Shown here in pieces: positions 19,274 to 38,410 of a DNA stretch of 64,000 bases; within the stretch, counting starts at the first letter, position 1; the number at the start of each line of letters is the position of its first letter. The stretch spans positions 10,059 through 74,058 of the forward strand of contig VFJZ01000007.1 in NCBI GenBank assembly GCA_009885805.1, given 5' to 3'. Source of the DNA: Actinomycetota bacterium. Lineage in GTDB: Bacteria > Actinomycetota > Thermoleophilia > Gaiellales > F1-60-MAGs149. The translations under genes were made by a program, and so were the position numbers. Under the pieces are notes generated by a model that ran no database searches, was not told the DNA's origin, and saw only the letters and a list, made by a program, of their open reading frames with translations.

Positions 19274-20797
19274 GTGGCATCTCGTCGTATGCTCGTGAGG
19301 ATGACCGCGCCGTCGAACCACCCGCACGACGATCCGGACCTCGGTCGGCTGACCGAGGCGATCGGTCTCGTTGTCGCCTCGGCCGCCATCGTCGGTGGCA
19401 CCGAGTACCCGGTGATCCGGGGCGCAGGCGTGGTGGCGCTGCTCGGAGGCGCACCGCCGGATGGTGACGACGGCGCCGCCGCGTGGCAGAGCCGTGTGCA
19501 TCCGGCGGACGCAGAAGCCTACCGGATCGCCGTCGAGCGGATGGGCGGCGGTCTGTCCGCCGATGTCGAGTATCGCCTCGTCGGCTACGACGGGATCGTC
19601 CGGACGGTCTGGGATCGGTCGCGCGCGCGCCTTCTCGCGGACGGAACGCTGGTCGTCGACCGGTTCGTCCTCGACCTGACCGGCCGGAGGGACGAGCACG
19701 ATCGGCGCGCGGTCGACCTCCGCGAGGACGTCGGCCGCCTCGAGCGGGCGCTGGCCGAGTCCGATCGGCGGTCACGGATCGACGCGCTCACAGGGGTGTA
19801 CAACCGCATGCACCTGGCCGAGGTGATCGAGTCCGAACTCGGTCGCGGCGCGCGACAGGCGACGACGCCAGGGCTCTTCCTCATCGATCTTGACCATTTC
19901 AAGCGTGTCAATGACACCTTCGGCCACCTCCCCGGCGACGCCGTGCTCGTCCAGGCTGCGGCGCGGATTCGCGACGCCGTTCGACCCTACGACTGCGTCG
20001 CCCGTTTCGGTGGCGAGGAGTTCGCCGTCGTCGTCGCCGCGATCACCGACGACGCGGTCCTGCGGACGATCGGCGAGAACCTCCGGCAGGCGATCGCGGC
20101 CGAGCCGTTCGAGGTCGACGACGCGCTGATCTCCCTGACCGGCTCCGTCGGCTGTGTCCGCGCCGATCGCGATACCTGGACGGCCGACGCGCTGATCGCC
20201 GCCTCGGACCGCGCGCTCTATCACGCCAAGGGCGCCGGTCGGAACCGCGTCCACACCGCGCACGACGTCGACGACACGGCTCCGCCAATGGCCGACGCTG
20301 GCATCGAATTGATCGCCGAGGCGCTCGCGGCCGCGGCCGCGGCTCGCGAACGGCGGCCGCTGGAGCCGGCGCGACTCGCCGCCGAACTGGCCGGCATCGC
20401 GAGTTCTGCGCTTGGCCTCGACCTGCGGGCAACGGCGCGTGCGAGCCTCGCGGCCCTGCTGGCCCACGCCGGACCGGTGCCGCTCGATCCGGCCGAGCGC
20501 CTCTCGCCCGTGCCGGACCGCGTCGCCCTCGCCGACCACGCGTTGACGACGGAGGACCTGGTACGGCGTGTCGCGGGCCTTCAGGAGGTGGCCGCGGTCC
20601 TGCGCCAGCAACACGAACGGTTCGACGGTACGGGCGTGCCCGACGGCCTCGCCGGCACCGACATCTCGATCGAGGCGCGGGTCGTCGCGGTCGCCGTCGC
20701 GGCCGCCGTCTTCGGTGACGACAGCCTCGTGGCGGTGCCCGAGGGGGTTCTCGACCCGGCGGTCGTCGCTGCCCTGCAGGGTGCGATCGCGCCGTAG
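19274..20797 (+). CDS. PAS - GGDEF diguanylate cyclase with a degenerate HD-GYP-like C-terminal domain
   Basis: GGEEF with an I-site ([14 protein letters not shown]). PAS-like segment ([18 protein letters not shown]). The C-terminus [15 protein letters not shown] resembles HHExxDGxGYP, but the upstream HD position reads LLAHAG. Start is uncertain (GTG 19274, or ATG 19289/19301). Confidence 0.8.
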
Positions 20798-20809: not shown

Positions 20810-21376
20810 ATGGTGACGTCCGCTGCTTCCGGTCTGAAGCGGCACATCCCGAACGCGCTCACGGTCGCGCGGTTGGCCGCGATCCCGGTCTTCGTCGCCC
20901 TGCTGTGGGATACGGACGGCGGCCATTCGGTCGCCGCCGCCTGGGTGTTCGGCGCGGCCTCGGCGACCGACTACCTCGACGGCTGGCTCGCGCGCCGTTA
21001 CCGGCTCGAGTCGCGCTTCGGGCGGCTCGCCGATCCGCTCGCCGACCGGCTCCTGATCGGCGCCGCCGTCCTGCTGCTCTGGAGCGCGGATCGGATTCCA
21101 GCGCTCGTGCCGCTGCTGGTTGTCGGGCGCGACGTGATCCTCCTGTCCGGGCTCTCCTTCGCCGCCGAACGTGGCTACCAGTTGTCCGTGATCTACATCG
21201 GCAAGGCGGCGACGTTCGTCCTCATGACGGCGCTGGCGATGATCATGCTGACGACTCCGGACACCGTCTGGCCGGACGTCCTGCTGTGGGCCGGTATCGC
21301 GATGTCCGTCTACGCCGGCTCGATCTACGTGTACACGGTGGCGCGACGACTCGGTAAACCCTCAAGCTCGGCTTGA
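20810..21376 (+). CDS. pgsA: CDP-alcohol phosphatidyltransferase (PgsA-type)
   Basis: 188 aa. DYLDGWLARRYRLESRFGRLADPLADRL matches D-x2-DG-x2-AR...G-x3-D-x3-D. Multiple TM segments. Confidence 0.85.
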   Translation: MVTSAASGLKRHIPNALTVARLAAIPVFVALLWDTDGGHSVAAAWVFGAASATDYLDGWLARRYRLESRFGRLADPLADRLLIGAAVLLLWSADRIPALVPLLVVGRDVILLSGLSFAAERGYQLSVIYIGKAATFVLMTALAMIMLTTPDTVWPDVLLWAGIAMSVYAGSIYVYTVARRLGKPSSSA

Positions 21377-21401
21377 AGCTTTTCCGGAACGCACCTATAC
21401 T
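21373..21401 (+). promoter_or_regulatory. near-consensus housekeeping-sigma promoter TTGAAG-N17-TATACT
   Basis: -35 at 21373-21378 and -10 at 21396-21401, in an unusually AT-rich patch. The ATG at 21411 is only 9 nt after the -10, implying a leaderless or very short-leader mRNA. Confidence 0.5.
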
Positions 21402-21410
21402 ACGAGGGCA

Positions 21411-21911
21411 ATGGCAGAGCCGACGCTCACGGACGATGAACTCAAGGACCGGATCCGCGCCATCAAGGGCGACGAGGAGCACCTCTCCTACGAGCGCCGG
21501 ATGTTGCACGGGCGGATCGATGTCGTCCGCAGCGAGATCCTCGCTCGCCTGGATCGCCGCGCCGGCACGGCCGAGGCGTCCGAGGACCCCCTCGCCGATC
21601 TCGTCAAGCGTCTGTCCGAAGCCCTGACGCACGCGGGTCCGCCGCCGATCGCCGCCGAGCTGGAACGGTTCGGTGCGGGTGACGACGCGCCGGCGGCCGC
21701 CAGCGTGGACGCGGACGGAGGTCTGGACGATCTCCTGCCCGAGCTGCACCTGCTCGCCGACACCGAACTCGCTGCCCTCGTGCGGTCGCTGACGGCGCAG
21801 GAGCAGCGCACCTCCGCGCGGCGGCAGGAGCTGCATCGCGAGCTCGATCGCTTCCGTGCCCAGCACGTCGCGCGCCTGCAGGAGCGGTTCGCGGCCACCG
21901 GCGGGGAGTAG
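21411..21911 (+). CDS. helical protein with two E-x3-S-x2-R-x3-H-x3-D motifs (RsiG-like anti-sigma candidate)
   Basis: 166 aa. Motif 1 is E22-D37 (EEHLSYERRMLHGRID); motif 2 is E131-D146 (EQRTSARRQELHRELD). They are separated by a Pro/Ala/Asp-rich linker. The gene itself is well supported (promoter, GC3, tight coupling to the FHA gene); the function is inferred. Confidence 0.55.
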   Translation: MAEPTLTDDELKDRIRAIKGDEEHLSYERRMLHGRIDVVRSEILARLDRRAGTAEASEDPLADLVKRLSEALTHAGPPPIAAELERFGAGDDAPAAASVDADGGLDDLLPELHLLADTELAALVRSLTAQEQRTSARRQELHRELDRFRAQHVARLQERFAATGGE

Positions 21912-21913: not shown

Positions 21914-22351
21914 ATGTTCTGCTCCGAGTGCGGCTTCCAGAACGGCGAGGCCGTGAACTTCTGCGCCAAGTGCGGCACGATGATGCACGCCGAGGAACCA
22001 GGCGCCTCGACGACGATGAGCTTCTCGGTCGAGGAGATCGCCGCCGCCGAACCGACGGCCGGCCCCGTGCTCGTCATCCGCGCGGGCGGCGGGCGGGCCG
22101 GCGAGCATCTGCCCCTGCAGGCGCCGAAGGAGACGATCGGCCGGTCGCCGGAAGCGGATCTGTTCCTCGACGACGTGACGGTGTCTCGTGAGCACGCCGT
22201 GATCGAACGGACGGCGGACGGTTTCTACCTCCGCGATCTCGGCTCGCTGAACGGCACGTACGTGAATCGCTCGCGGGTCACGCGCCAGCGACTCGCCGAC
22301 GGCGACGAGGTGCAGGTGGGCAAGTTCAAGCTGACCTTTCTGGAGAGCTGA
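21914..22351 (+). CDS. zinc-ribbon + FHA-domain protein (GarA/OdhI-like)
   Basis: N-terminal CSECGF ... CAKCG ribbon and a Thr-rich ASTTMSF segment. FHA core GRSPEADLFLDDVTVSREHAVI ... DLGSLNGTYVN. Confidence 0.8.
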   Translation: MFCSECGFQNGEAVNFCAKCGTMMHAEEPGASTTMSFSVEEIAAAEPTAGPVLVIRAGGGRAGEHLPLQAPKETIGRSPEADLFLDDVTVSREHAVIERTADGFYLRDLGSLNGTYVNRSRVTRQRLADGDEVQVGKFKLTFLES

Positions 22352-23040
22352 TGGCAACGACCGACACCGCGCGGGAACCGAAGCCGCTGACGATCGGTGC
22401 GGTCTGCCGGCTCCTCAAGGAGGAGTTCGGCGACGTCTCGATCTCCAAGATCCGCTTCCTCGAAGATCAGAACCTCGTCACGCCGCGGCGGACCGCCGGC
22501 GGCTATCGCCTGTACGGGCCCGACGATCTCGAACGACTCCGCACGATCCTGCGCCTGCAGCGGGACGAGTTTCTGCCGCTGCGCGTGATCCGGCAGGAGC
22601 TCGTCGCGGGCGCAACCGATCGTTCCGACCGACCGGTGCGTCGCCGCAACGCGATGATCGAGGACCAGCGCAGCCTCGCGCGTGAGGATCTGATGCGCGA
22701 GAGCGGGGCGGACGCCGACTTCGTCCGCGAGCTGGAGGACTTCGGCCTGATCTCGCCGGCGGGCAGCGGTGGCGGTTACGGTGATCTCGAACTCGATGTC
22801 GTGCGCATCGCCCTCCAGCTCGCCGGCTACGGCCTCGGTCCGCGGCATCTGAAGCAGTTCCACACGGCCGTCGTCCGTGCGGCTGGCCTGCTCGACGGCG
22901 TCGTCGCGCCGTCGCTGCGATCGCGCAATGCCGACCGTCGCGAGGCCGGCCTCGAGGACCTCGCGAACCTCTCCCGCCTCGCGGCCGACCTGACCGAGCG
23001 CATCCTGCTGCGCGAGGTCCACGGAGCCTCCGGCGCCTGA
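22351..23040 (+). CDS. MerR-family transcriptional regulator
   Basis: N-terminal HTH (LTIGAVCRLLKEEFGDVSISKIRFLEDQNLVTPRRTAGGYRLY). 1-nt overlap with the FHA gene. Confidence 0.8.
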   Translation: MATTDTAREPKPLTIGAVCRLLKEEFGDVSISKIRFLEDQNLVTPRRTAGGYRLYGPDDLERLRTILRLQRDEFLPLRVIRQELVAGATDRSDRPVRRRNAMIEDQRSLAREDLMRESGADADFVRELEDFGLISPAGSGGGYGDLELDVVRIALQLAGYGLGPRHLKQFHTAVVRAAGLLDGVVAPSLRSRNADRREAGLEDLANLSRLAADLTERILLREVHGASGA

Positions 23041-25757: not shown

Positions 25758-26600
25758 TTACCCCGCTCGGCGTTCGAGCCACTGGCGGCCGGGCCGTTCC
25801 ACCGACAACGCGACCTGATCGCGACCGTCCCGCTTCGCCCGGTACAGCGCGGCGTCGGCCACCGCGAACAGTTCGTCACTGCTCCGGGCATCCGCCGGAA
25901 ACTCCGCCACGCCGGCCGAGACCGTGGTACCGACGGGGCGGCGGCCACGGCTCGGTACGACCCGTGTCCCCGCCACCGCCTCGCGGATCCGGTCGGCCAG
26001 CCGCCCCGCACTGTCGGCGTCACCCGGCACGAGCACGACCAGTTCCTCGCCGCCGTACCTGGCAGCGATGTCGCTGTCCCGCGTCGCACGCCGCACGACG
26101 ACACCGAACCGCGCCAGCAGATCGTTGCCCGCGGCATGGCCGTAGCGGTCGTTGAACTCCTTGAACCGGTCGAGGTCGAGAATGATCAGCGAGCAGGTGC
26201 CGCCGTAGCGTCGTGTTCTCGCGACCTCGCGCTGGAGCGCGTCGACGAAGAAGGCGTACGTGCGCAGACCGGTGAGGCGGTCCGTGAACGCCTCCCGCTC
26301 GACGCGGTCGGACTCGGTGTCGCGGCGCGACGCGCGGTCGAAGATCGCGACTGCGCCGACGGCGAACGCGACCCGCAGCGGGGTGTCGAGCGGCGCCAGA
26401 CCTGCACCGAAGACGCCGACGAGCAGCCCCGCGACGCCGCCGCCGGAGGCGGCGAACCCGACGCCTGCGGCAACGAGTGCCGCCTGCGCCCTCGGCTCGA
26501 TGGCAGCGGTGAGGTGCGCGGCGACGAGGAGTGCGACCGCCACCCCGATCGTCGCCACGCGGAAGCGCCGTCGTCGCACGGCCAGGCTTGCCACGCCCAA
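25758..26600 (-). CDS. membrane-anchored GGDEF diguanylate cyclase
   Basis: 280 aa with an N-terminal hydrophobic region of about 100 aa. GGEEL active-site variant with an I-site (RDSD-IAARY-GGEEL). DLDRFKEFNDRYGH. Confidence 0.8.
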   Translation of the reverse strand: MGVASLAVRRRRFRVATIGVAVALLVAAHLTAAIEPRAQAALVAAGVGFAASGGGVAGLLVGVFGAGLAPLDTPLRVAFAVGAVAIFDRASRRDTESDRVEREAFTDRLTGLRTYAFFVDALQREVARTRRYGGTCSLIILDLDRFKEFNDRYGHAAGNDLLARFGVVVRRATRDSDIAARYGGEELVVLVPGDADSAGRLADRIREAVAGTRVVPSRGRRPVGTTVSAGVAEFPADARSSDELFAVADAALYRAKRDGRDQVALSVERPGRQWLERRAG

Positions 26601-26636: not shown

Positions 26637-26867
26637 TCAGAGCAGGCGGAGCGCGATCCGGCCCTCGCTGATCGCGTCGACGACGAGCGTGACCGTTGCG
26701 CCCACCGCGAGGGGTGCGTCGGTCGCGGCGGTGACCTCGACGCCGGCCACGGCGAGCACGGCCCGGCCGCCGTCGACGGCGACGACGCGTGCGCGCAGGC
26801 GCCGGCCCGGGAGCAGGCGCAGCTCACCGCCGCCGCCGTTCACGAGGATTCCCGCCAAGTCGCTCAA
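26637..26867 (-). CDS. 76-aa beta-rich protein, function unknown (upstream of the GGDEF gene, divergent from the flagellar operon)
   Basis: High GC3. TTG start is uncertain. 36 nt upstream of the GGDEF gene on the same strand. No family recognised with confidence. Confidence 0.45.
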   Translation of the reverse strand: MSDLAGILVNGGGGELRLLPGRRLRARVVAVDGGRAVLAVAGVEVTAATDAPLAVGATVTLVVDAISEGRIALRLL

Positions 26868-26890
26868 CTATCTGAAATCCATGCCGATAT
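26864..26890 (+). promoter_or_regulatory. sigma-28 (FliA/SigD/WhiG)-type promoter candidate TCAA-N15-GCCGATAT
   Basis: -10 GCCGATAT at 26883-26890 matches the class consensus GCCGATAA/T. -35 TCAA (3 of 4 versus TAAA) at 26864-26867 with a 15-nt spacer. 31 nt upstream of the first flagellar gene. Confidence 0.5.
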
Positions 26891-26921: not shown

Positions 26922-27653
26922 GTGGAACGAGGGCTCTTCATTGCCGCCTCAGGGATGCTCGCGGCCCAGATCCGACAGGATGTCATCGCAAATCGCTTGG
27001 CGAACGCTACGACGCCGGGCTTCAAAGGTGAGACTCTGGCGCAGGTCGCCTTCGGCGACATGCTGCTCTCGAACACGTTGACGGGTGCCGGCATCGGTCC
27101 ACTCAACGTCGGCACGCTCATCACGGAGATCAAGCCGAACCTCACGAACGCCGGCTTCCGGTGGACGCAGAACACGCTCGACCTCGCGATCGGCGGTGAT
27201 GGCTGGTTCGCCGTGCAGACCCCACAGGGCGTTCGCTACACGAGAAACGGCGCGTTCACGACCGATGCCGAGGGGTTCATCACGACGGCGCAGGGCGACC
27301 GCGTACTCGGTACCGACGGGCAGGGAATCAACGTCGCCGGCGGCGGTCGCGTGACCATCGCCCGCACCGGCGAGGTCCGTGTCGGCGATCGTGTCGCCGG
27401 CAGGGTCGCCGTGATCGCGCTCGATCCCGAGTCCGTCCGCAAAGAGGGCCAGAACTACGTCAGTGGCACCGTGAATGCCGGCGCCCGCGTCGGCTCAGTC
27501 GCGCAGGGTGCTCTCGAATCGTCCAACGTCAACACGGTCTCCGAGATGGTCGCGCTGATCGAGAACATGCGCACCTTCGAGGCCGACCAGAAGGTGATCC
27601 GCGCGCTCGACGACTCGCTCGACCGCGCAGCCAACCAGATCGGGAGAGTCTGA
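26922..27653 (+). CDS. flagellar basal-body rod protein (FlgF/FlgG family)
   Basis: GTG at 26922 with a ggagga RBS. N-terminal GLFIAASGMLAAQIRQDVIANRLANATTPGFK; C-terminal GALESSNVNTVSEMVALIENMRTFEA. Confidence 0.85.
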   Translation: MERGLFIAASGMLAAQIRQDVIANRLANATTPGFKGETLAQVAFGDMLLSNTLTGAGIGPLNVGTLITEIKPNLTNAGFRWTQNTLDLAIGGDGWFAVQTPQGVRYTRNGAFTTDAEGFITTAQGDRVLGTDGQGINVAGGGRVTIARTGEVRVGDRVAGRVAVIALDPESVRKEGQNYVSGTVNAGARVGSVAQGALESSNVNTVSEMVALIENMRTFEADQKVIRALDDSLDRAANQIGRV

Positions 27654-28426
27654 TGCTCGACGCGCTCTACACGGCAGCCAGCGGCATGCTGGCCCAGCAG
27701 ATCGGGCTCGACGTTATCGCCAACAACCTGTCGAACATCAACACCGTCGGCTACAAGGCGCAGCGGGCGGCGTTCGAGGACCTGCTCTACAACACCATCT
27801 CGACCAACCAGGGCGCGACGCAGGGCCAGCAGATGGGCCTCGGCGTCGCGGTCGCCGGCATCCAGGCCCAGTTCGACGAGGGGTCGATGCAGACGACCGG
27901 CGTCCAGACGGACTTCATGATCACCGGCGGCCAGGGCTTCTTCGCCGTCCGCAAGCCCGACGGGACGACGGCGTACACACGGGCCGGCAACTTCGGCGTC
28001 GACGCGGCCGGGCAACTGGTGACCCAGCAGGGCGACCTCGTGCTCGACGCAGCCGGCCGCCCGATCGCCTTCCCGAACGATACGAAGCAGATCGAGATCG
28101 ATCCGGCGGGGAACATGGTCGCGGTCACGCAGACCGGCCGTCAGGCCGTCGGGCGGCTCGGCGTGATCGCCTTCACGAACCCGGCCGGCCTCGAGTTGGC
28201 CGGGCAGAGCCAGTTCCGTGAGACCGCGAACTCGGGCGCGCCCCGCTCCGTGACGTCCGGTGAAAGCGCCGGCAAGGTCGTCCAGGGGGTCCTCGAGATG
28301 TCGAACGTGAAGGCCGTCGACGAGATGGTCAACATGATCGCGACCCAGCGCGCCTTCGAGTCCGTCTCCAAGGTCGTCCAGGCGTCCGACGAGATGCTCG
28401 GCACCGCGAACAGCCTGAGGCGCTGA
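27653..28426 (+). CDS. flgG: flagellar basal-body rod protein FlgG
   Basis: 257 aa. MLDALYTAASGMLAQQIGLDVIANNLSNINTVGYK; C-terminal GVLEMSNVKAVDEMVNMIATQRAFES. TGATG overlap with the upstream gene. Confidence 0.9.
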   Translation: MLDALYTAASGMLAQQIGLDVIANNLSNINTVGYKAQRAAFEDLLYNTISTNQGATQGQQMGLGVAVAGIQAQFDEGSMQTTGVQTDFMITGGQGFFAVRKPDGTTAYTRAGNFGVDAAGQLVTQQGDLVLDAAGRPIAFPNDTKQIEIDPAGNMVAVTQTGRQAVGRLGVIAFTNPAGLELAGQSQFRETANSGAPRSVTSGESAGKVVQGVLEMSNVKAVDEMVNMIATQRAFESVSKVVQASDEMLGTANSLRR

Positions 28427-28794
28427 TGTCGGTCGCCGCGATCTCCTCGACGATGTCGACCTCGCCGATCGGCCCGCTGCCGGCCGGCGTCGCCGCGCCG
28501 AAGACCGAGCCCGAGAAGGCGCTCTACGAGGCGTGCAAGCAATTCGAAGCCGTGTTCGTCCGGCAGCTCGTCAGCGGTTGGATGAAGAGCGCCCGCGGCG
28601 AGAGCGCGGCCGACGGCGTTCAGGCCGTCTACCAGGACATGGCCGACTCGACGATGACGCAGAATCTCGTCGAGGGTGGCATCTTCGGTCTCGCCGGCAC
28701 GGTGTACGGCCAGCTTCGGGCCGTCGCCGGTCCGGTCACGCCGACCGCAGATCCACCTCCAGGCGTCACGCCGACACTGCCGGTGGTCGCATGA
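28426..28794 (+). CDS. flagellar rod-binding protein (FlgJ N-terminal-like, no muramidase domain)
   Basis: 122 aa. CKQFEAVFVRQLVSGWMKSAR ... IFGLAGTVYGQL matches the Rod_binding pattern. Confidence 0.7.
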   Translation: MSVAAISSTMSTSPIGPLPAGVAAPKTEPEKALYEACKQFEAVFVRQLVSGWMKSARGESAADGVQAVYQDMADSTMTQNLVEGGIFGLAGTVYGQLRAVAGPVTPTADPPPGVTPTLPVVA

Positions 28795-29279
28795 ACGAGA
28801 CACTCCGGCAGCTGATCGCCGTCCTGCGCGCCCAGGCCGACTCGCTCGAGCAGGCGCTGGCGTTGACCGAGCGACAGACCGACTGCATCGTCCGCCGTGA
28901 TCTCGAGCAGATCAACGGGCTCTCGTCGAGCCTCGAGCGCGAGGTGCTCGCAGGGCGCCGCCTCGAGGAGCGCCGGCTTGGCTTCGCGGCCGAGCTCGCC
29001 GCCGCGCTCGGCATCGATCCGGAGGCGACGACGCTCGGGACGATCGCGGCCGCGCTGCCGCGCAACGAGTCGCGGGCACTCCTCGCCGCCGGCGACACGG
29101 TCATCCGCACGGTCGAGCGGCTCGCGCGCCGATCTGCTGCCAACCGGCAGCTGCTCGAGCACGAGCTCCAGGTGATCGACCAGGTGATGCGGATCGCCCA
29201 CCGCGGTGAGCGGACGACCTACGCCGGCGGCGGTACGTACGCCGAGACCACCATCTCGCTCCTGGACGCGCGCGCCTGA
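28791..29279 (+). CDS. FlgN-like flagellar export chaperone
   Basis: In-frame ATG at 28791 (ATGA overlap). 162-aa all-helical protein directly upstream of flgK-flgL (MNETLRQLIAVLRAQADSLEQALALTERQ...). Confidence 0.65.
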   Translation: MNETLRQLIAVLRAQADSLEQALALTERQTDCIVRRDLEQINGLSSSLEREVLAGRRLEERRLGFAAELAAALGIDPEATTLGTIAAALPRNESRALLAAGDTVIRTVERLARRSAANRQLLEHELQVIDQVMRIAHRGERTTYAGGGTYAETTISLLDARA

Positions 29280-30736
29280 TGGGCGTCTCGACCTTCAACG
29301 GCATCAACATCGCGCTGCGCGGCCTGCTCGCTCAGCAACGCGCGCTCGACGTCACGACGCACAACATCGCAAACGCCTCGACCGAGGGGTACACGCGGCA
29401 GGAGGCACTCCTCCAGGCAGCAGACCCGATCTCGAACGTGTCGCTCTGGGGCATGGTCTTCCCGGGGCAACTCGGGCAGGGCGTCACGGTCGACTCGTAC
29501 CGTCGGATCCGCGACGTCTTCAACGACGTGCAGCTGCGGGGCGCGGCGTCCGAGCAGGCGTCGCTTGACGTCCGCTACCGCGAGCTCCACGCGATCTCGC
29601 TGGCGATGCCGGAGCCGTCGGACTACGGACTGCGTTCGCAGCTCCAGCGCTTCTTCGAGTCGTGGCACGAGGTCGCGAACGCCCCCGAGTCGCTGGCGGC
29701 GCGGCACGCCCTCGCACAGTCCGGCCAGTCACTCGCGACGACCTTCAACCACACCGCCCGCGTCCTCGCCGACATGCGGGTCAACGACGACGCGGAGATC
29801 ACGGCCGGCATCGGCGAAATGAACGCGATCCTGGCCGGGGTCGCCGAGCTCAACACGCAGATCGGCCAGCTCGTCCTCGCCGGCGCCGAGCTGGACCCGG
29901 CGACGCTGCAGATCGTCCGTCCCGGTCAGGCCCCGAACGACCTCCTCGACCGTCGCGACCTCTTGCTCGACAAACTCGCGGAGATCGCTGACATCACGAG
30001 CGTCACCTACGACGACCAAAACCGCGCAACCGTCGTCGTCGCGGGACTGACGGTCGTGACGCCGGCGGCCGGCGCAACCCCCGTGACGCGAGCGCAGCTG
30101 GACGCGCAGTTCGCCAGCGCGACCCTGACGGGCGGTCAGCTCCACGGGCTGCTGGAGGCGCATGGCAACATGCTGAACGAGGCCAACCCGGCGTCGTACA
30201 TCTCCCAGCTCAACCTCCTCGCGCAATCGCTTCACGATGCCGTCAACGCCCAGCACGCCCTCGGCATCGATCTGAGCGGCACGGCCGGTGGGGTGTTCTT
30301 CGACATGTCGGCGCCCGCGGGCCCGCCGGGTGCGGCGACGCGACTGCGGATGTCGGCCGCGCTGCTGGCGACGCCGAACCTGATCGCCGCTGGCGGCGCC
30401 GGTCAGGGCCCCGGCTCAGCCACGAACGCGAATGCGATGATCGCGCTCCAGGACGCGCTCACGACGGGCGGCGCCACGTTCCGCAACTACTACAACGGCC
30501 TGCAGTCGGGACTCGGTGCGACGACGCAGAGCACGCAGCGGTCGCTCGAGGCGCAGGGCATCATCGTCGGTGGGCTGGCCGATCGCCGTTCCTCGACGTC
30601 GGACGTCTCGCTCGACGAGGAGATGACCAGCATGATCCGCTTCCAGCATGCGTACGCCGCGGCGTCGCGCATCCTCAGCGCGATGGACGAGAACCTCGAT
30701 CGCCTGATCAATGGCACCGGGCGGGTCGGTCTCTGA
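29279..30736 (+). CDS. flgK: flagellar hook-associated protein 1 FlgK
   Basis: 485 aa. N-terminal STFNGINIALRGLLAQQRALDVTTHNIANAST.GYTRQ; C-terminal VSLDEEMTSMIRFQHAYAAASRIL. Confidence 0.9.
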   Translation: MGVSTFNGINIALRGLLAQQRALDVTTHNIANASTEGYTRQEALLQAADPISNVSLWGMVFPGQLGQGVTVDSYRRIRDVFNDVQLRGAASEQASLDVRYRELHAISLAMPEPSDYGLRSQLQRFFESWHEVANAPESLAARHALAQSGQSLATTFNHTARVLADMRVNDDAEITAGIGEMNAILAGVAELNTQIGQLVLAGAELDPATLQIVRPGQAPNDLLDRRDLLLDKLAEIADITSVTYDDQNRATVVVAGLTVVTPAAGATPVTRAQLDAQFASATLTGGQLHGLLEAHGNMLNEANPASYISQLNLLAQSLHDAVNAQHALGIDLSGTAGGVFFDMSAPAGPPGAATRLRMSAALLATPNLIAAGGAGQGPGSATNANAMIALQDALTTGGATFRNYYNGLQSGLGATTQSTQRSLEAQGIIVGGLADRRSSTSDVSLDEEMTSMIRFQHAYAAASRILSAMDENLDRLINGTGRVGL

Positions 30737-31632
30737 TGCGGACGACGAACAACGTCATCTCCAGCCACGTATTGCACGACCTCCAGACGGTCGCCGAGCG
30801 GCTCGCGCGGACGCAACGCAAGCTCTCGACCGGCAGGGAGATCGGACAGGTCGAGGACGACCCGGTCGGCGCCGGACGCGCGATGTTCCTCCGCGGTCAG
30901 TTGGAGGACCTGCGCCAGTTCGATCGCAACATCGACGAGGCGCAGGGGTGGATGGCGGCGTCGGAGCTGTCGATGTCCGCGGTGCAGGACATGATGAAGC
31001 GCGCCAAGGAACTGGTCGTCCAGGCCGCGAACGGCACCATCGACCAGAGCGGCCTCAACAACATCGCAGCCGAGATCACACAGCTGATCGGAGCCGCTCG
31101 CCAGGCGATGAACGGGACGTTCGCGGGGCGCTACGTCTTCTCAGGGACGGCGACCCTCGCGCAGCCCTACCCACCGCCGGGGCTGGCGTACGCGGGTGAC
31201 GCGAACACCATGCTGCGCGTCGTCGGTCAGGGCGAGCTGATCGACGTGAACATTCGTGGATACGAGGCCTTCTCGGTGCCACCGACGGCGGCCGGTCAGA
31301 CCGTCCTCGAGCTCCTCGAGCAGATCCGTGCCGACCTCGTCGCTGGCAACCGCGCCGCGATCGGAGGTGCCGATCTCCAGGGCATCGACGCGATGGTGGA
31401 CGGCCTCTCCTCGGCACGGGCGCTCGTCGGTGCGCGCATCAACCGGCTCGACACGCAGCAGTCGACGCTAAAGGACCTGGCCCTGAACGTCGAAGATCTG
31501 CTGTCGAAGACCGAGGACGCCGACATGGCCAAGACCATGATCGACTACTCGATGCAGCAGTCCATCTACGAGTCCGCATTGCAGTCCGGCGCGCGCGTCA
31601 TGCAGCCGTCCCTGCTCGACTTCCTGCGGTAA
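30736..31632 (+). CDS. flgL: flagellar hook-associated protein 3 FlgL
   Basis: 298 aa. Flagellin-like N-terminus (LARTQRKLSTGREI ... DDPVGA) and C-terminus (DADMAKTMIDYSMQQSIYESALQ). Confidence 0.85.
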   Translation: MRTTNNVISSHVLHDLQTVAERLARTQRKLSTGREIGQVEDDPVGAGRAMFLRGQLEDLRQFDRNIDEAQGWMAASELSMSAVQDMMKRAKELVVQAANGTIDQSGLNNIAAEITQLIGAARQAMNGTFAGRYVFSGTATLAQPYPPPGLAYAGDANTMLRVVGQGELIDVNIRGYEAFSVPPTAAGQTVLELLEQIRADLVAGNRAAIGGADLQGIDAMVDGLSSARALVGARINRLDTQQSTLKDLALNVEDLLSKTEDADMAKTMIDYSMQQSIYESALQSGARVMQPSLLDFLR

Positions 31633-31640
31633 GGAGCGCG

Positions 31641-32150
31641 ATGCCGCCCGTTACGATCGAGTCCACCCGCTTCGGCACCGTCGAGATCGAAGACGACATC
31701 GTGCTGACGCTCGAACAGGGGATGATCGGCTTCCCCGATCAGCGGCGGTACGCGATTCTCAAGCAGCGCGAAGACTCGGTGTTCATGTGGCTCCACGGCG
31801 TTGACGACGGGTCGCTCGCGTTCCCGATCGTCCTGCCGTGGGTCTTCTACTGGGACTACGAGGTCGATCTGGCCGACGCCGACATGGCCGCGATCGGTGT
31901 CGAGCGGGCAGATCAGATCTCGATCTACTGCGTGGTCAACGTCGGCGCCGACGTACGGAACGCGACGATCAACCTGTTCTCGCCGATCGTCGTCAACAAT
32001 GGCGATCGTCGCGCACGGCAGGTCATCAACACGATCGATGCGTACACGACCCGCGACCAACTGTTCCGCGATACCGACAGCCCGACGCCGGTGGCGATGC
32101 ACGAATCGGACGCGCCGAACGTCACGGTGCTGTCCCCCGGGTTCCAGTAG
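31641..32150 (+). CDS. fliW: flagellar assembly factor FliW
   Basis: 169 aa. [35 protein letters not shown] ... FMWLHGVDD ... FPIVLP. Confidence 0.85.
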
Positions 32151-32179
32151 GATCCGGTGGCAACGCCAGGGAGGGCACC

Positions 32180-32404
32180 GTGCTCGTACTGACCAGGAAG
32201 ATCGGCGAGACGTTCGTCGTCGGCGACGACATCACCGTGACGGTGATCGACATCGTCGGCGGCAACAAGGTGCGGATCGGTATCAACGCGCCCTCGAGCG
32301 TCCCCGTGTACCGCGAAGAGATCTGGCTCCAGATCCAGGAGGAGAACCGGCAGGCTGCCGCCGCCGGCCCGGATCTGCTCGACCAGCTCGAGTCATCCAC
32401 GTAA
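32180..32404 (+). CDS. csrA: carbon storage regulator CsrA (FliW-partner type)
   Basis: GTG at 32180 after gggaggg. (M)[48 protein letters not shown], plus a C-terminal extension. Confidence 0.9.
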
Positions 32405-32428: not shown

Positions 32429-32887
32429 GTGGCGGCCGACAAGGAAGTGATGACGGCGCGCACGCGCAACTGCAGGGAGTGCGGAGACGCCTTCCCGCTG
32501 ACCAGGATCGATCAGGTTCTCTGCGTCGCGTGCGTCGACGATGATCGCGACGTCCGCCTGATCGTCCAGACCCTCGTGAGCGCACGGCGTCCGACGCTCT
32601 CGGCCGTGGCGCTCGCGACGGGGATCTCGCTCGCTCGCATCCATGAACTCACCGCGGCCGGTCGCCTCTCGGGTGTGTCCGTCGGCACGGACTCCCCGGC
32701 GGGCGATGACCTCGTCATCGCCACGTCTTGCGTCTGTCAGCCCGGCACGGTCGGGCGGTGCATCCACTGCCAGATGCGGCTCGCGAAGACGTTCGCCGAC
32801 GCCACGTCCGGGGCGACGCCGCACGTTGCGACCGCACGAAGAGGCATGCACAACCGGCCGTCCGACGGCGGTCGACGGCGCTCCTAA
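32429..32887 (+). CDS. YvyF-like flagellar-operon zinc-ribbon protein
   Basis: N-terminal CRECG ... CVAC, a central HTH-like segment (PTLSAVALATGISLARIHELTAAGRL), and C-terminal CVCQ ... CIHCQ. This is the architecture I recall for Bacillus YvyF (TIGR03826). Start is 32429 or 32450. Confidence 0.5.
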   Translation: MAADKEVMTARTRNCRECGDAFPLTRIDQVLCVACVDDDRDVRLIVQTLVSARRPTLSAVALATGISLARIHELTAAGRLSGVSVGTDSPAGDDLVIATSCVCQPGTVGRCIHCQMRLAKTFADATSGATPHVATARRGMHNRPSDGGRRRS

Positions 32888-32912
32888 AGGAAACGTCTGC
32901 GTCGGCCGATTG
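32885..32912 (+). promoter_or_regulatory. sigma-28-type promoter candidate TAAA-N16-GCCGATTG
   Basis: -35 TAAA at 32885-32888 (overlaps the upstream stop codon). -10 GCCGATTG at 32905-32912. 41 nt upstream of the cheW GTG, which has an aaggag RBS at 32942-32947. Confidence 0.5.
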
Positions 32913-32953: not shown

Positions 32954-33385
32954 GTGCACCAGCTCGTCGTCTTCTCCCTCGGATCCGAGGAGTACGGACT
33001 CCCGATCACCGCGGTCCAGGAGATCATCCGTTACTCGCGGCCACGGACGATCCCTTCGGCCCCATCGAGCGTCCGCGGCGTGATCAACCTGCGCGGCCGT
33101 ATCATCCCCGTCGTCGATCTGAAGAGCCGCCTCTGTCTCCATGGCGGCGACGCGGACGAGTCGAAGATCGTCATCATCGAGGCGGGAGACGTCACGGCCG
33201 GCCTGATCGTCGACGACGTCGACGAGGTCATCACGGTTGACGAGGACACGCTCGAGCAGGCTCCGAGCGGCGACGTCGGCTACATCTCGGCGGTCGCCAA
33301 GGTCGGCGATCGGCTGCTCGTCCTCCTCGACCTCGAGGCGATGTTCGCCGGCGAGGCGTTCGACGCCGATCTCGCAGCGGCCTGA
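32954..33385 (+). CDS. cheW: chemotaxis coupling protein CheW
   Basis: 143 aa. LVVFSLGSEEYGLPITAVQEIIR ... VRGVINLRGRIIPVVDL. Confidence 0.9.
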   Translation: MHQLVVFSLGSEEYGLPITAVQEIIRYSRPRTIPSAPSSVRGVINLRGRIIPVVDLKSRLCLHGGDADESKIVIIEAGDVTAGLIVDDVDEVITVDEDTLEQAPSGDVGYISAVAKVGDRLLVLLDLEAMFAGEAFDADLAAA

Positions 33386-33392
33386 CGCCCCC

Positions 33393-34499
33393 GTGACACT
33401 CGGCTCTGCAACCGCTGCCCGTCCGCGCGTTCGCGCACTCGTGGTTGACGACTCGCCGTTCATGCGCAAGCTGCTCAACGACACCCTTCGCACCTGCGGG
33501 GTCGAAGTCGTCGGCGAGGCCGGCAACGGCGCGGATGCGCTCGCCGCCTGCGCCCGTCTCAACCCGGACGTGATGACGCTCGACCTGCAGATGCCCGGTT
33601 TGTCCGGTATGGACGTGCTGCGGAAGCTACCCCCCGGCGGCCCGGGCGTTCTCGTCGTGTCGGCGCACACCGACGAGGGCTCCACGCTCGCCGTCGAGGC
33701 GCTGTCGATCGGCGCTGCCGAGGTGATCCGAAAGCCGGCGATCGACGGCTCGATGAGCGAGTTCGCGGCTGATCTGAAGGCCGGGGTCGAGGCCGCTGCC
33801 GCCGCTCGCCGCCGACCGGCGCGGCCGTGCCTGGCGCGGCCGCACGCGGCGCCGTCCCCGCCGGCTGCGAGCCCCCGCGCTGGTCGTGTCAGGCGACCGG
33901 TCGCGGCGCCGCCCGGCCCGCGCGACTCGATCCGCGCCCTCAACCGGCCGATCGTCGTGATCGCCTCTTCGACCGGCGGCCCGCAGGCGCTCGCCGAGGT
34001 CGTGCCGAGGCTGACGAACCCCTGCGGCGCGGGCGTCCTGATCGTGCAGCACATGCCGTCCGGATTCACCCGCTTGCTCGCGGAGCGCCTGAACACCATG
34101 AGCGAGCTCGAGGTCCGCGAGGCCGTCAGCGGCGATCGTGTCCGGCCCGGTCTCGCGCTACTCGCTCCGGGCGGACTCCACCTGCGCCTCGCCGGCGGCA
34201 TCGTGACGTTGACCGAGGAACCGCCGATCGGCGGGTTGCGTCCTCGCGCCGACCTGACAATCGAGGATGTCGCACGCGAGTGGCGCGACCGCTGCGTGCT
34301 GATCGTCCTGACCGGCATGGGCGACGACGGGACGCGGGGCGCACAGGCGCTCAAGGGTGCCGGCGGCGTGATCCTGACCGAGGCCGAGGAGACCTGCGTC
34401 GTCTTCGGGATGCCGCGCTCGATCAACGAGGCCGGGCTCACAGACATCATCCGGCCGCTCGGCGCCCTGCCGGCGGCGCTGAAGCAGGTGATGCGCTGA
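33393..34499 (+). CDS. cheB: chemotaxis response regulator protein-glutamate methylesterase CheB
   Basis: Receiver domain (VRALVVDDSPFMRKLL ... DVMTLDLQMPGLSG) plus methylesterase (VVIASSTGGPQAL ... VQHMP ... GMGDDG). GTG 33393 chosen as the start (uncertain). Confidence 0.9.
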   Translation: MTLGSATAARPRVRALVVDDSPFMRKLLNDTLRTCGVEVVGEAGNGADALAACARLNPDVMTLDLQMPGLSGMDVLRKLPPGGPGVLVVSAHTDEGSTLAVEALSIGAAEVIRKPAIDGSMSEFAADLKAGVEAAAAARRRPARPCLARPHAAPSPPAASPRAGRVRRPVAAPPGPRDSIRALNRPIVVIASSTGGPQALAEVVPRLTNPCGAGVLIVQHMPSGFTRLLAERLNTMSELEVREAVSGDRVRPGLALLAPGGLHLRLAGGIVTLTEEPPIGGLRPRADLTIEDVAREWRDRCVLIVLTGMGDDGTRGAQALKGAGGVILTEAEETCVVFGMPRSINEAGLTDIIRPLGALPAALKQVMR

Positions 34500-35275
34500 T
34501 GGCCGACGAGTACATCGACTTCAGCACGGGCCTGAAACGTCTCACCGGGATCGATCTCGGGTCGTACAAGCGCCAGCAGATGGAGCGACGGATCCGCTCC
34601 TACGTCGATCGCATGCCCGTCAGCGGTCTCGCCGAATTCCTCCGGCTGATCGAGAAGTCGCAGGAGGAGCTGGACACGTTCCTCGACCGGATCACCATCA
34701 ACGTCTCGGAGCTGTACCGCAACCCGGAGCAGTACGAGACGCTCCGCACCAAGGTCGTCCCGGAACTCCGGGCAGCGAACCCGATACGCGTCTGGAGTGC
34801 AGGCTGCTCCTACGGCGCGGAGGCCTTCACCGTCGCGTGCATGCTCTCGGAAGAGCTCGGCGGGACGGCTCACTTCGAGATCGTCGGGTCGGACATCGAT
34901 CGCCGCGTCGTGCACCGGGCGGAGCGCGGGTTCTTCTCCGACGCCGACATGCGGAGCGTGCCCGCGAAGGTCCGCGAACGCTGGTTCGAGCGGCAGGACA
35001 GCGGCTTCCAGGCGCGCGAGCAGTTGAAGCACCACCTCCGGTTCCGGCGTGAGGATCTCCTCCACGACCGCTTCCAGAATGGCTGGGATCTCGTCCTGTG
35101 CCGGAACGTCGTCATCTACTTCACCGACAAGGCTCGCGACCAGGTCCACCAGGGCCTCGCGAAGGTCCTGCGCCCCGGCGGCTACCTGATGGTCGGCTCG
35201 ACCGAGCGGGTTGCCGATCCGCACGCGATCGGACTCGAGCCCGCATACCCGTTCATTTACCGGAAGGTCGCCTGA
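34499..35275 (+). CDS. cheR: chemotaxis protein methyltransferase CheR
   Basis: ATG at 34499 overlaps the cheB stop. ITINVSELYRNPEQYE ... IRVWSAGCSYGAEAFTVA. Confidence 0.9.
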   Translation: MADEYIDFSTGLKRLTGIDLGSYKRQQMERRIRSYVDRMPVSGLAEFLRLIEKSQEELDTFLDRITINVSELYRNPEQYETLRTKVVPELRAANPIRVWSAGCSYGAEAFTVACMLSEELGGTAHFEIVGSDIDRRVVHRAERGFFSDADMRSVPAKVRERWFERQDSGFQAREQLKHHLRFRREDLLHDRFQNGWDLVLCRNVVIYFTDKARDQVHQGLAKVLRPGGYLMVGSTERVADPHAIGLEPAYPFIYRKVA

Positions 35276-37323
35276 TGGAGCTCTCTGACTACCTACCCAT
35301 GTTCCTGGCCGAAGGGCGCGAGCATCTTCAGACGCTCAACCTCTCACTGGTCAAGATCGAGCAGGAACCGCGCGACGTCGAGACGATCAACGACATCTTC
35401 CGCGTTGCCCACACCCTCAAGGGGATGAGCGCGACGATGGGTTTCGCTCGCATGGCGTCGCTCACGCACGAGATGGAAAACGTGATGGAAGGCATGAAGA
35501 GCCGCGCCGATGGCCTCGGCCAGGACGCGCTCGACGCCCTCTTCGGCTGCCTCGACAGCCTCGAGAAGATGGTCGACGAGATCGAGGAGCACGGGGCGGA
35601 GCAGAGCGACCCGGCCGACCTCGTCGGTCAGCTCAAGCGGCTGCTCGACGCCGGCGCCACCGCTCCCGGCGACGAGACCGCGCCGGGCGACGACCCTGCC
35701 CCGTCGGGAGCGCTCGTGCTCGATGCGGAGGTCGTCGCCAGCGTCGAGGACTCTGGGCTCTACGTCGCGCATGTCCACATCGTCCTGGCTGACGATGTCG
35801 ATATGCCGGGCGTGCGCGGCTTTCTCGCCGTCCGGAAGGCCGAGGAGCACGGTGAGCTCCTGCTGTGCGTTCCGGAGATCGCCGTGATCGAGGCTGGGGA
35901 CGGCGAGGGCGCCGACATCCACTTGTACGTAGCGACGTCCGACGACGCCGACCGAATCGCCGCCGGGGTGCTCGCGCTCGAGGGGCTCGGCAGCTGCGTC
36001 GCGGCGCGCTACGACGTGGCGGCGGCGGCTACGGCTCCAGCCGAGGCGGCGGTCGCCGAGGAGCCGCCGGCAGCGGACGCGTCCGTCGCGGTCGCGGCGG
36101 CTGCCGTTCCGGCCCCCGCGGGCACGCCGGCGCCGAAGGCTGCCGCACCGGCGAAGGTCAAGGCGCACACGGTCCGTGTCGAAGCCGAGCGCCTCGATCA
36201 GCTGATGCACATGATGGGCGAGATGGTCGTCCAGCGCACGCGCCTCGAGTCGATCGCCCAGAACTCGCTGCACAGCGACCTGCACGGCGCTGTCAACGAC
36301 CTCTCACGGGTGTCGCAGTCCCTGCAGCAGCTCGTCATGCAGGTGCGGATGGTCCCGGTCGAGACCGTGTTCATGCGGTTCCCGCGCATGGTTCGCGACA
36401 TCGCCGCCAAGCTCGGCAAGCAGGTCGACCTGAAGATCAAGGGCGAGGACACTGAGCTCGACCGCACCGTCGTCGAAGCGCTGGGCGATCCGCTCGTCCA
36501 CCTCGTCCGTAACGCGATGGACCACGGGCTGGAGACGCCGGAGGAGCGAGCCGAGTCCGGCAAGCCGCTGATCGGCACGCTCGAGATCTCGGCCGAGCAC
36601 GCCGGCGGCGAGGTGCTGATCCGCGTCATCGAGGACGGACGCGGCGTCAACGCCGCGAAGGTCGGCAAGATCGCCGTCTCGCGCGGGCTGCTCACGGCCG
36701 AGCAGGCAGAGGGTCTGACGATCGAGGAGGCGATCGAGCTGCTGTTCTCGCCGGGCTTCTCGACGGCGGAGGTCACGACGGACATCTCCGGACGCGGCGT
36801 CGGTATGGATGCGGTGCGGACGATGGTGCGGAACCTCGGCGGAGACTGCTTCGTCAGGTCAGTGCTCGGACAGGGTTCGACGGCGACGATCCGCCTGCCC
36901 CTGAGCCTGGCGATCATGCCCACACTCCTGGTCGAGGCCGATGGCGCGCCGTACGCGTTGCAGCTCGACCGCGTCGAGCAGACGATCCGGATCGCGGACT
37001 ACACGCTACGCTCGATCAAGGGCGCGAACGCGATCGTGCTGCGTGGTCGGATCCTGCCGCTGTTCGACCTCGGCAGCATGCTCGGCGGTTCGTCGGTCGA
37101 CCCGCTGAACGCGAGCGCGGTGGTCTGCCGGACGGGTGCCACGCGCATCGGCCTGATGGTGGAGTCGCTCGTCGGCCAGCAGGAGCTCGTCACCCGGCCA
37201 TTGCCCGCGGTCACCGACGCGCAGCGGGCACTCGTGTCCGGTGGCGCGGTGCTCGGCAACGGTCAGATCGCGCTCATCATCGACCTCGATGCGATCGGCA
37301 AGCAGGCGAGGATGGTGGCCTGA
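35275..37323 (+). CDS. cheA: chemotaxis histidine kinase CheA
   Basis: HPt motif FRVAHTLKGMSATMGF. Dimerisation and HATPase regions (HLVRNAMDHGLE ... DDGRG ... SGRGVGMD). C-terminal CheW-like domain. Confidence 0.9.
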   Translation: MELSDYLPMFLAEGREHLQTLNLSLVKIEQEPRDVETINDIFRVAHTLKGMSATMGFARMASLTHEMENVMEGMKSRADGLGQDALDALFGCLDSLEKMVDEIEEHGAEQSDPADLVGQLKRLLDAGATAPGDETAPGDDPAPSGALVLDAEVVASVEDSGLYVAHVHIVLADDVDMPGVRGFLAVRKAEEHGELLLCVPEIAVIEAGDGEGADIHLYVATSDDADRIAAGVLALEGLGSCVAARYDVAAAATAPAEAAVAEEPPAADASVAVAAAAVPAPAGTPAPKAAAPAKVKAHTVRVEAERLDQLMHMMGEMVVQRTRLESIAQNSLHSDLHGAVNDLSRVSQSLQQLVMQVRMVPVETVFMRFPRMVRDIAAKLGKQVDLKIKGEDTELDRTVVEALGDPLVHLVRNAMDHGLETPEERAESGKPLIGTLEISAEHAGGEVLIRVIEDGRGVNAAKVGKIAVSRGLLTAEQAEGLTIEEAIELLFSPGFSTAEVTTDISGRGVGMDAVRTMVRNLGGDCFVRSVLGQGSTATIRLPLSLAIMPTLLVEADGAPYALQLDRVEQTIRIADYTLRSIKGANAIVLRGRILPLFDLGSMLGGSSVDPLNASAVVCRTGATRIGLMVESLVGQQELVTRPLPAVTDAQRALVSGGAVLGNGQIALIIDLDAIGKQARMVA

Positions 37324-37919
37324 TGAGCGCCGTCCCGCGCTACAACGCGCTCGAGCTGTCAGCCGTGCAGGAGATCGCCAACATCGGCGCCGGCAGCGCT
37401 GCCACCGCGCTCTCGCTGCTCGTGGGACGGCCCGTCGACATCGGCGTGCCGGCCGTCGAGCTCGTCTCGCTGGCCGTCGCCTCCGAGCGCATCGGGCCGG
37501 CCGAGGCCCGCGTCGCCGCGGTGCTGACGCCCGTCAAGGGGGACGTCCCGGCGAGCCTGCTGCTGGCGTTCCCCGACGACGCGGCGGCCGTGCTCTGCGG
37601 GCTGCTCGGGACGACCGCGGACAGCGACATGGGCCGTTCGTGTCTCCAGGAGATCGGCAACATCCTGACGGGGTCGTACACGACCGCGATCGCCGGGATG
37701 ACCGGACTCGCGATCGAGCCCGAGCCGCCCCTGCTCGCGGTCGACATGCTGGGCTCCGTCATGGACGCGGTGTTGTCGCTCGCCGTCGAGGCGGCGGACA
37801 GCGTGCTGTTCCTCCAGACGGCGATCCGGATCGAGGGCGTCGAGTGCTCGTTCGGCTTCCTGTTCGTCCCGTCCGAAAATGCGATCCCCGCCCTCCTCGC
37901 CGCGCTGGGGCTGGCATGA
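37323..37919 (+). CDS. cheC: CheY-P phosphatase CheC
   Basis: 198 aa with two intact S-x3-E-x2-N-x22-P sites (SAVQEIAN...P and SCLQEIGN...P). Confidence 0.8.
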   Translation: MSAVPRYNALELSAVQEIANIGAGSAATALSLLVGRPVDIGVPAVELVSLAVASERIGPAEARVAAVLTPVKGDVPASLLLAFPDDAAAVLCGLLGTTADSDMGRSCLQEIGNILTGSYTTAIAGMTGLAIEPEPPLLAVDMLGSVMDAVLSLAVEAADSVLFLQTAIRIEGVECSFGFLFVPSENAIPALLAALGLA

Positions 37920-38407: not shown

Positions 38408-38410
38408 GGC

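Follow-up and report, generated by a model that had tools for sequence, protein, structure and literature searches.

We describe a gene, here called rsiG, that encodes a 166-residue helical protein in a stretch of 64,000 nucleotides (the window) from an uncultured actinobacterium (assembly GCA_009885805.1, contig VFJZ01000007.1, positions 10,059 to 74,058), which GTDB places in Gaiellales. The analysis suggests that the product is very probably an anti-sigma factor of the RsiG family that binds cyclic di-GMP (c-di-GMP). The explanation that we prefer, with moderate confidence, is an RsiG orthologue of the monomeric twin-motif form that would sequester a sigma factor of the FliA/WhiG family with motility as its output. 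The result also gives a hypothetical protein from an uncultured soil actinobacterial lineage its correct annotation as RsiG.

Family membership

The codon bias of the open reading frame (ORF) is that of a real gene, with a G+C content at third codon positions (GC3) of 0.87 in a window of about 71% G+C. The translated protein is matched by the Pfam model for RsiG, PF22802, in two stretches and with 62.4 bits against a cut-off of 27 (E-value 3.2e-17). NCBIfam gave no model for it, and the FlgM family is absent from its Pfam and NCBIfam matches at E-values up to 10. The top sequence match in the PDB is RsiG of Streptomyces venezuelae (6pfj_T, E-value 7.5e-8), a chain of the RsiG-WhiG-c-di-GMP complex that was deposited under the name 'AmfC protein'. 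The alignment with this chain is collinear and full-length (residues 9-158 against chain residues 28-166), and the next PDB matches are the Rubrobacter RsiG chains 7lq2, 7lq3 and 7lq4. The contact residues for WhiG known from the S. venezuelae protein are partly kept, Tyr69 corresponding to Y27, Arg58 to the invariant R16 and Arg54 to K12 in the window protein. Among 5.8 billion proteins searched, 62 homologues were found, and all of them carry PF22802 except P0058, a 99-residue fragment with no recorded domain.

An AlphaFold2 model built on the homologue alignment (predicted local distance difference test score 84, predicted template modelling score 0.73) contains two long helices, residues 8-50 (alpha1) and 117-163 (alpha5), each carrying one of the two motifs described below, and a less confident loop. 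When the PDB was searched with this model by Foldseek, the best three matches were the RsiG chains 6pfv_T, 6pfv_B and 6pfj_T (probability 0.97-1.00, template modelling score 0.48-0.55, 30-32% identity), followed by generic coiled coils. The predicted fold agrees with the antiparallel alpha1/alpha5 coiled coil of RsiG.

Because the PF22802 cut-off is passed, the alignment with the S. venezuelae protein runs from end to end, the best matches of the model are RsiG structures, and both motifs are found in orthologues, the protein can be counted as an established member of the RsiG family within the limits of what sequence and predicted fold can show. A preliminary description of this DNA, made by a model from the letters and a list of ORFs, had called the protein RsiG-like and had proposed a profile comparison with RsiG and a structure prediction as checks. 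Both agree with its assignment, and the profile comparison places the protein in no unrelated family.

The two c-di-GMP motifs

Translation confirms two exact copies of the pattern E-x3-S-x2-R-x3-H-x3-D, at E22-D37 and E131-D146, one on each predicted long helix, and the linker between them (about residues 75-115) is rich in Pro, Ala and Asp; the preliminary description had reported both features. A scan of all six frames of the window for E-x3-S-x2-R-x3-[QH]-x3-D finds these two matches only. Among 300,000 shuffles of the protein, 178 contained at least one match and a single one contained at least two. When the window protein is aligned with 23 homologues of 47-79% identity, the residues E22, S26, R29, H33, D37, E131, S135, R138 and H142 are invariant and D146 is either D or E, so that orthologues conserve both motifs.

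The stretch between the helices carries a signature of the clade, HxGPPP, in which H74, G76, P77, P78 and P79 are likewise invariant in the 23 homologues. If RLSEAL of the window protein is aligned by eye with RLSEIL of the S. venezuelae protein, the signature would fall where the loop of the latter (DVPSRH) touches c-di-GMP, the contacting loop residues being listed in PMC7005675. HxGPPP may be a clade-specific solution for a loop that closes over the ligand.

The preliminary description had singled out the replacement of Gln by His in the motifs as an H variant. This variant is not new: the motif has already been written as E(X)3S(X)2R(X)3[Q/H](X)3D, Gln being frequently replaced by His, and His has been argued to be able to make the same stacking contact as Gln (PMC7005675, PMC8325347); moreover, the H-type RsiG of Conexibacter binds c-di-GMP with a dissociation constant of 25 uM (PMC8325347). 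Our own census, which likewise rules out the H motif as a new variant, was made with a profile of the alignment, which yielded 1115 matches at E-values up to 0.001 among 1.84 billion cluster representatives, and it covers 147 proteins (P0071-P0216 and P0024) among the matches listed. The commonest twin-motif state among these 147 is H/H (28 proteins), followed by Q/H (25), H/Q (13) and Q/Q (2), and His occupies the position in 61 of the 66 single-motif proteins. The H variant is therefore common as well as already published, and environmental RsiGs have His more often than Gln at the stacking position.

Comparison with known systems

Among the closest known systems is RsiG of S. venezuelae (6PFJ and 6PFV; Gallagher et al. 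2020, PMC7005675), a monomeric twin-motif protein of the same Pfam family with the same order of N-terminal tail, alpha1 with motif 1, loop, and alpha5 with motif 2. The two proteins are collinear over about 150 residues at 30-32% identity in the structural alignment, the E, S, R and D of both repeats are identical, and the Tyr that follows the Ser of motif 1 is kept. The window protein differs in having His for Gln in both motifs, in its length (166 residues, whereas the S. venezuelae crystal models reach residue 199) and in its loop, HxGPPP instead of the c-di-GMP-contacting DVPSRH. Its gene has pgsA on one side and an FHA/ftsR pair on the other, with flagellar genes nearby, and its host belongs to a Gaiellales-like uncultured lineage with flagellar genes, whereas S. 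venezuelae is a sporulating filament.

The RsiG proteins of Rubrobacter radiotolerans and Conexibacter woesei (7LQ2-7LQ4; Schumacher et al. 2021, PMC8325347) come from the same deep actinobacterial branch, Rubrobacteria and Thermoleophilia. Their alpha1 and motif 1 align with those of the window protein at an E-value of about 6e-5, and the Conexibacter protein, which binds c-di-GMP, shares the His at the Gln position. These proteins have one motif and must dimerise, whereas the window protein has two motifs per chain.

A further comparison is offered by a preprint of January 2026 (Denis et al., PMC12871210), according to which the actinobacterial sigma-28 homologues form two clades, WhiG1 and WhiG2. 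Geodermatophilus obscurus, which is treated there, resembles the present case in being a flagellated actinobacterium with a twin-motif RsiG, sigma-28-type promoters and flagellar clusters without FlgM. Its sigma partner is known (WhiG2 and not WhiG1), whereas the window holds no sigma gene. FlgM of Proteobacteria and Bacillota resembles the window protein in its proposed job of holding a FliA-family sigma inactive, but there is no relationship of sequence or fold, and it is secretion by way of the flagellar export apparatus, not a nucleotide signal, that releases FlgM.

Architecture and evolution of the family

Not all RsiG proteins found at the corresponding locus of sister lineages have the canonical order of units. 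In the slot between pgsA and the FHA gene, two of the related loci described below (L008, 4340-4867, and L010, 10001-10522) encode a circularly permuted twin-motif RsiG, in which an alpha5-like unit is followed by an alpha1-like unit that ends in LSEILAHRGPP...ELERLD with an HxGPP tail; the corresponding gene of L009 appears frameshifted. The L008 protein aligns with a doubled copy of the window protein with 100 bits across the junction, compared with 67 bits for the collinear alignment. Permuted forms also include P0061, P0075 and P0078.

A census of architectures with clade-specific hidden Markov models of the two units (A for alpha1, B for alpha5) covered 149 proteins, namely the 147 of the motif census together with P0061 and P0062. 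It gave 58 A-B, 63 single-unit, 17 B-A, 9 A-A and 1 B-B proteins and 1 fragment, with some noise in telling A from B when the sequences are distant. Several of the A-A proteins, for example P0062, look like recent tandem duplications. In a comparison of units by BLOSUM score, the window alpha1 is nearest to the S. venezuelae alpha1 (0.50), and the window alpha5 scores 0.25 with the S. venezuelae alpha5, no higher than with the alpha1 of its own chain (0.31). The sequences point to a history of the RsiG family with more than a single duplication or rearrangement.

Schumacher et al. found RsiGs of the single-motif form only in Thermoleophilia, and no RsiG from Gaiellales stands in their table (PMC8325347). 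Two observations are mildly new, namely a canonical twin-motif RsiG in a Gaiellales-affiliated lineage of Thermoleophilia and the circularly permuted RsiG at the same locus in sister lineages; neither permuted nor Gaiellales RsiGs were found mentioned in the literature searched. Together with the recently duplicated forms, they bear on the published single-duplication model.

Organization of the locus and gene order in related genomes

The gene is part of a tightly spaced string on one strand, followed at some distance by flagellar and chemotaxis operons (Table 1). As the preliminary description had stated, both GGDEF proteins of the region carry an I-site. The first gene of the string encodes a protein whose HD_5 (HD-GYP-like) domain looks degenerate, with GGEEF and the I-site intact; because AHAG and GVP stand in place of HD and GYP, the protein is probably not a phosphodiesterase. 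One base is common to the end of the FHA gene and the start of ftsR, and the string continues 3' of ftsR with genes for a short-chain dehydrogenase, a phosphoribosyltransferase and a GNAT acetyltransferase. The gene of the Cys/His-rich protein overlaps the end of the second GGDEF gene; it adjoins that gene in L001-L010, with flipped orientation in L008-L010. The only match of Rfam near the locus is a tRNA-Pro, and neither a c-di-GMP riboswitch nor another RNA element was found.

Table 1. Features of the window discussed in the text
Feature	Position	Strand	Remarks
PAS-GGDEF-HD_5 protein	19274..20797	+	First gene of the string; I-site RPYD-x5-GGEEF
pgsA-like CDP-alcohol phosphatidyltransferase	20810..21376	+	
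Candidate sigma-70-type promoter TTGAAG-17-TATACT	21373..21401	+	Ends 9 nt before the rsiG ATG
rsiG	21411..21911	+	166-aa helical twin-motif RsiG-family protein
c-di-GMP motif 1, E22-x3-S26-x2-R29-x3-H33-x3-D37	21474..21521	+	EEHLSYERRMLHGRID; helix alpha1
H74-x-G76-P-P-P	21630..21647	+	Inter-helix loop; clade signature
c-di-GMP motif 2, E131-x3-S135-x2-R138-x3-H142-x3-D146	21801..21848	+	EQRTSARRQELHRELD; helix alpha5
Zinc-ribbon and FHA protein, OdhI/GarA-like	21914..22351	+	Starts 3 nt past the rsiG stop
FtsR, MerR family	22351..23040	+	NCBIfam NF050798, 206 bits against a cut-off of 150
Conserved Cys/His-rich protein, 226 aa	25102..25782	-	No known family; no Pfam or NCBIfam match
Second GGDEF protein	25758..26600	-	RDSD-x5-GGEEL; divergent from flgF; hydrophobic N-terminal region seen in the translation
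Sigma-28-type promoter CTCA-N16-GCCGATAT	26863..26890	+	31 nt before the flgF GTG start
Late flagellar operon	26922..32404	+	flgF, flgG, flgJ-N-like, flgN, flgK, flgL, fliW, csrA
Sigma-28-type promoter TAAA-N16-GCCGATTG	32885..32912	+	41 nt before the cheW GTG start
Chemotaxis/switch operon	32954..41518	+	cheW, cheB, cheR, cheA, cheC, cheD, 62-aa ORF, fliM, fliY, cheY

A candidate sigma-70-type promoter, whose -35 element overlaps the stop codon of pgsA, precedes rsiG; it is the sole sigma-70-like match between 19000 and 33200, where 0.8 would be expected by chance. Both of its hexamers are kept in L002, L003, L004 and L011, and L001 keeps TATACT with TTGATG as the first hexamer. It would appear from this that rsiG, together with the FHA and ftsR genes downstream, has a near-leaderless transcript of its own.

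A scan of one genome per GTDB species yielded ten related loci (handles within L001-L011) in which RsiG is at most 69% identical to the window protein. All come from metagenome-assembled genomes labelled Gaiellales (an order of the class Thermoleophilia), Thermoleophilia or 'uncultured Actinomycetes', in keeping with the restriction of RsiG to Actinomycetota. In the closer loci, L001-L004, the proteins of the neighbouring genes share 60-88% identity with their counterparts. L001-L007 and L011 have a common gene order, in which methylmalonyl-CoA mutase, PAS-GGDEF, pgsA, rsiG, FHA and ftsR genes are followed further on by the gene of the Cys-rich protein, the second GGDEF gene, and then the sigma-28-type promoter with flgF to fliW. 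Exceptions are L006, which has no PAS-GGDEF gene, and L003 and L007, which end before the flagellar genes are complete; a shortened order is found in L008-L010. The trio of rsiG, FHA and ftsR genes is kept in every related locus, and the adjacency of rsiG, a GGDEF gene and a sigma-28-driven flagellar gene is kept in L008 and L010, although the RsiG match there has no more than 35-37% identity over most of its length and the protein is permuted. Such conservation is compatible with a functional link between the c-di-GMP enzymes, RsiG and the sigma-28-driven motility genes, and could equally be inherited gene order. A conserved locus that joins cyclase genes, rsiG and sigma-28-driven operons provides a setting for the published idea that c-di-GMP controls motility via RsiG and WhiG.

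Promoters and sigma factors

Sigma-28-type promoters had been described upstream of the flg and che operons, and we find them before flgF and cheW. Matches to the sigma-28-type pattern are about as many as in shuffled sequence (3.7 expected); only two are intergenic, and these are the two well-placed sites. With the pattern used, no sigma-28-type promoter was found before either GGDEF gene or before rsiG. The flgF promoter is a phylogenetic footprint, its hexamers being kept and its spacer varying in L001, L002, L004, L005 and L006, and therefore a sigma factor of the FliA/WhiG family must operate in these genomes. An equivalent element precedes fliW in the more distant loci L008-L010, and L005 has a site resembling the cheW promoter after csrA.

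The two promoters differ in their -35 elements. That of flgF is CTCA, the type reported for WhiG1, and that of cheW is the canonical TAAA, reported for WhiG2; each type is kept in relatives. Because of this difference two sigma factors may share the work, and two sigma-28 paralogues could split the motility regulon.

Annotation of about 60 ORFs of the window with Pfam and NCBIfam gave no sigma factor and no FlgM. The statement of the preliminary description that the late flagellar operon lacks FlgM agrees with this, in that FlgM was not found among the ORFs of the flagellar block that were tested, although the scan of small ORFs was not exhaustive and only part of the flagellar gene set lies in the window. 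The ORFs upstream of flgK encode a FlgJ-N-like rod-binding protein and FlgN. No flagellin gene lies in the window, despite the presence of the fliW-csrA pair.

Proposed mechanism and alternatives

By homology with the S. venezuelae protein, alpha1 (about residues 8-50) and alpha5 (about residues 117-163) would pack as an antiparallel coiled coil with one motif per helix, and the two motifs together would clamp a c-di-GMP dimer. The loaded RsiG would bind and sequester a sigma factor of the FliA/WhiG (sigma-28) family, presumably of the WhiG2 type, and a fall in c-di-GMP would release the sigma factor. Its output would take in the sigma-28-dependent chemotaxis/switch operon at the least, with the late flagellar operon as a possible further part, and high c-di-GMP from the neighbouring I-site GGDEF enzymes would shut the motility genes down.

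That the flagellar and chemotaxis genes are the output of the RsiG-controlled sigma factor is a proposal to which we give slightly less than an even chance. An output on the neighbouring promoters is favoured by the failure to find FlgM, by the canonical WhiG2-type promoter of cheW and by the persistence of the adjacency across deep divergence. Several observations weigh against the proposed mechanism as a whole. A tblastn search with Escherichia coli FliA (the query is identical to PDB 6pmi_F) found no sigma-70-family gene in the window at E-values up to 10 or in L001-L011 at E-values up to 1. The gene itself lies in a housekeeping-looking string (pgsA, OdhI-like FHA, FtsR), separated from flgF by about 5 kb and five unrelated genes, and synteny throughout a lineage is by itself no proof of a functional link. 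The CTCA -35 element at flgF is the one reported for WhiG1, and two-hybrid assays and AlphaFold 3 predictions show that the RsiG of Geodermatophilus binds WhiG2 and not WhiG1, the clade that is associated with flagellar clusters (PMC12871210). Lastly, the Foldseek E-values of the model are weak (0.026-0.14), as expected for coiled coils.

The alternative that survives best accepts a genuine RsiG and differs in the regulon: that of its WhiG2 partner would exclude flagellar structural genes and comprise, for example, genes for diguanylate cyclases and phosphodiesterases, pili or regulators, and a separate, RsiG-insensitive WhiG1 would read the flg promoters, the position of rsiG being inherited gene order. 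We regard this as somewhat unlikely. The partner preference of the Geodermatophilus protein speaks for it, as does the co-occurrence of WhiG1 with 81% of flagellar clusters and of WhiG2 with only 46% (PMC12871210), and so do the WhiG1-type CTCA-N16 element at flgF, which is kept in relatives, and the location of rsiG in the pgsA/FHA/ftsR string with what is apparently its own sigma-70-like promoter. On the other hand, the target motifs of WhiG1 and WhiG2 inside flagellar clusters could not be told apart by Denis et al. (PMC12871210), the TAAA-N16-GCCGAT promoter of cheW belongs to the canonical type that is reported for WhiG2, and the adjacency of rsiG, GGDEF and flagellar genes survives in L008 and L010, where RsiG is both divergent and permuted.

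It is far less probable that the protein is a c-di-GMP-binding coiled coil with another partner, for example the OdhI/GarA-like FHA protein or FtsR, through which it would act on central metabolism or cell division. The gene arrangement invites this idea, since the FHA gene begins 3 nt beyond the stop codon of rsiG, the FHA and ftsR genes overlap by a base and the trio is found in every related locus. The FHA-FtsR pair is, however, widespread in Actinomycetota, including species without RsiG, and is a housekeeping pair; the Pfam family of the regulator is named after mycobacterial Rv1828. All characterised RsiGs (those of Streptomyces, Rubrobacter, Conexibacter and Geodermatophilus) bind WhiG, and the residues that contact WhiG in S. 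venezuelae are partly kept in the window protein.

The last alternative, that the two motifs are coincidental in a generic charged coiled coil with no role in nucleotide binding, starts from the fact that long Glu/Arg-rich helices can fit short patterns by chance, but it is effectively refuted and has a negligible probability, given that only one of the 300,000 shuffles produced two matches, that the six frames of the 64 kb hold no others, that the motif residues are invariant in orthologues whose surrounding residues vary, and that a curated family model is matched.

A more far-reaching combination of the proposed mechanism with the architectural data would hold that in this Gaiellales-like lineage FlgM has been lost, that there may be a single WhiG2-type sigma-28, that the twin-motif RsiG gates the late flagellar and chemotaxis genes by c-di-GMP, and that the family arose by repeated RsiG duplications and a B-A circular permutation rather than by one duplication in an ancestor with a single motif. 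We consider this combination improbable as a whole. If it were true, the twin-motif RsiG would be the ancestral, motility-controlling form of the switch, and the question of what replaces FlgM in Actinomycetota would be answered.

Relation to published work

Most of what the preliminary description had inferred is covered by three papers (PMC7005675, PMC8325347 and PMC12871210). It had proposed an RsiG-type switch in a unicellular relative, and RsiG in unicellular actinobacteria has already been published (PMC8325347). Nor can the link to motility and the missing FlgM be counted as novel, because motility and chemotaxis genes, together with those of diguanylate cyclases and phosphodiesterases, are the commonest predicted WhiG targets, and nearly every flagellar cluster of actinobacteria is without FlgM (PMC12871210).

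Additional observations

Some smaller features of the window deserve mention. In the gap that separates the second GGDEF gene from the promoter of flgF there is a 76-aa ORF (26637-26867, - strand, GC3 0.92). Since the matching gap in L001 is only about 170 nt long, conservation of this ORF is improbable. Between csrA and the cheW promoter, a zinc-ribbon ORF (32429-32887, + strand) has a weak match, far below the cut-off, to TIGR03826 (YvyF, a protein of flagellar regions); it is apparently absent in L005, where the promoter directly follows csrA.

The 62-aa ORF within the chemotaxis/switch operon (38411-38599, + strand, GC3 0.94) starts with MGDEILSQSAIDALL, the equivalent of a stand-alone N-terminal peptide of FliM that binds phosphorylated CheY (CheY-P), and it ends in TAG. 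The fliM gene, which starts 9 nt beyond it and is in frame with it, carries a TLSQSEIDALL of its own, and FliY here is without such a peptide. Possible explanations of the ORF are a mini-protein that acts as a decoy for CheY-P, a partial duplication and an artefact of the assembly.

Directly after cheY follows a sugar-modification island (41832-64000, + strand with one gene on the - strand). Its genes encode two DegT aminotransferases, the alpha and beta subunits of a thiamine pyrophosphate-dependent E1 enzyme, a formyltransferase, a methyltransferase, an epimerase, a protein that combines a lipoyl domain with a PglD-like hexapeptide acyltransferase domain, and several glycosyltransferases of families GT2 and GT4, one of them 1234 aa long. 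The island may serve the glycosylation of flagellin or of the cell surface.

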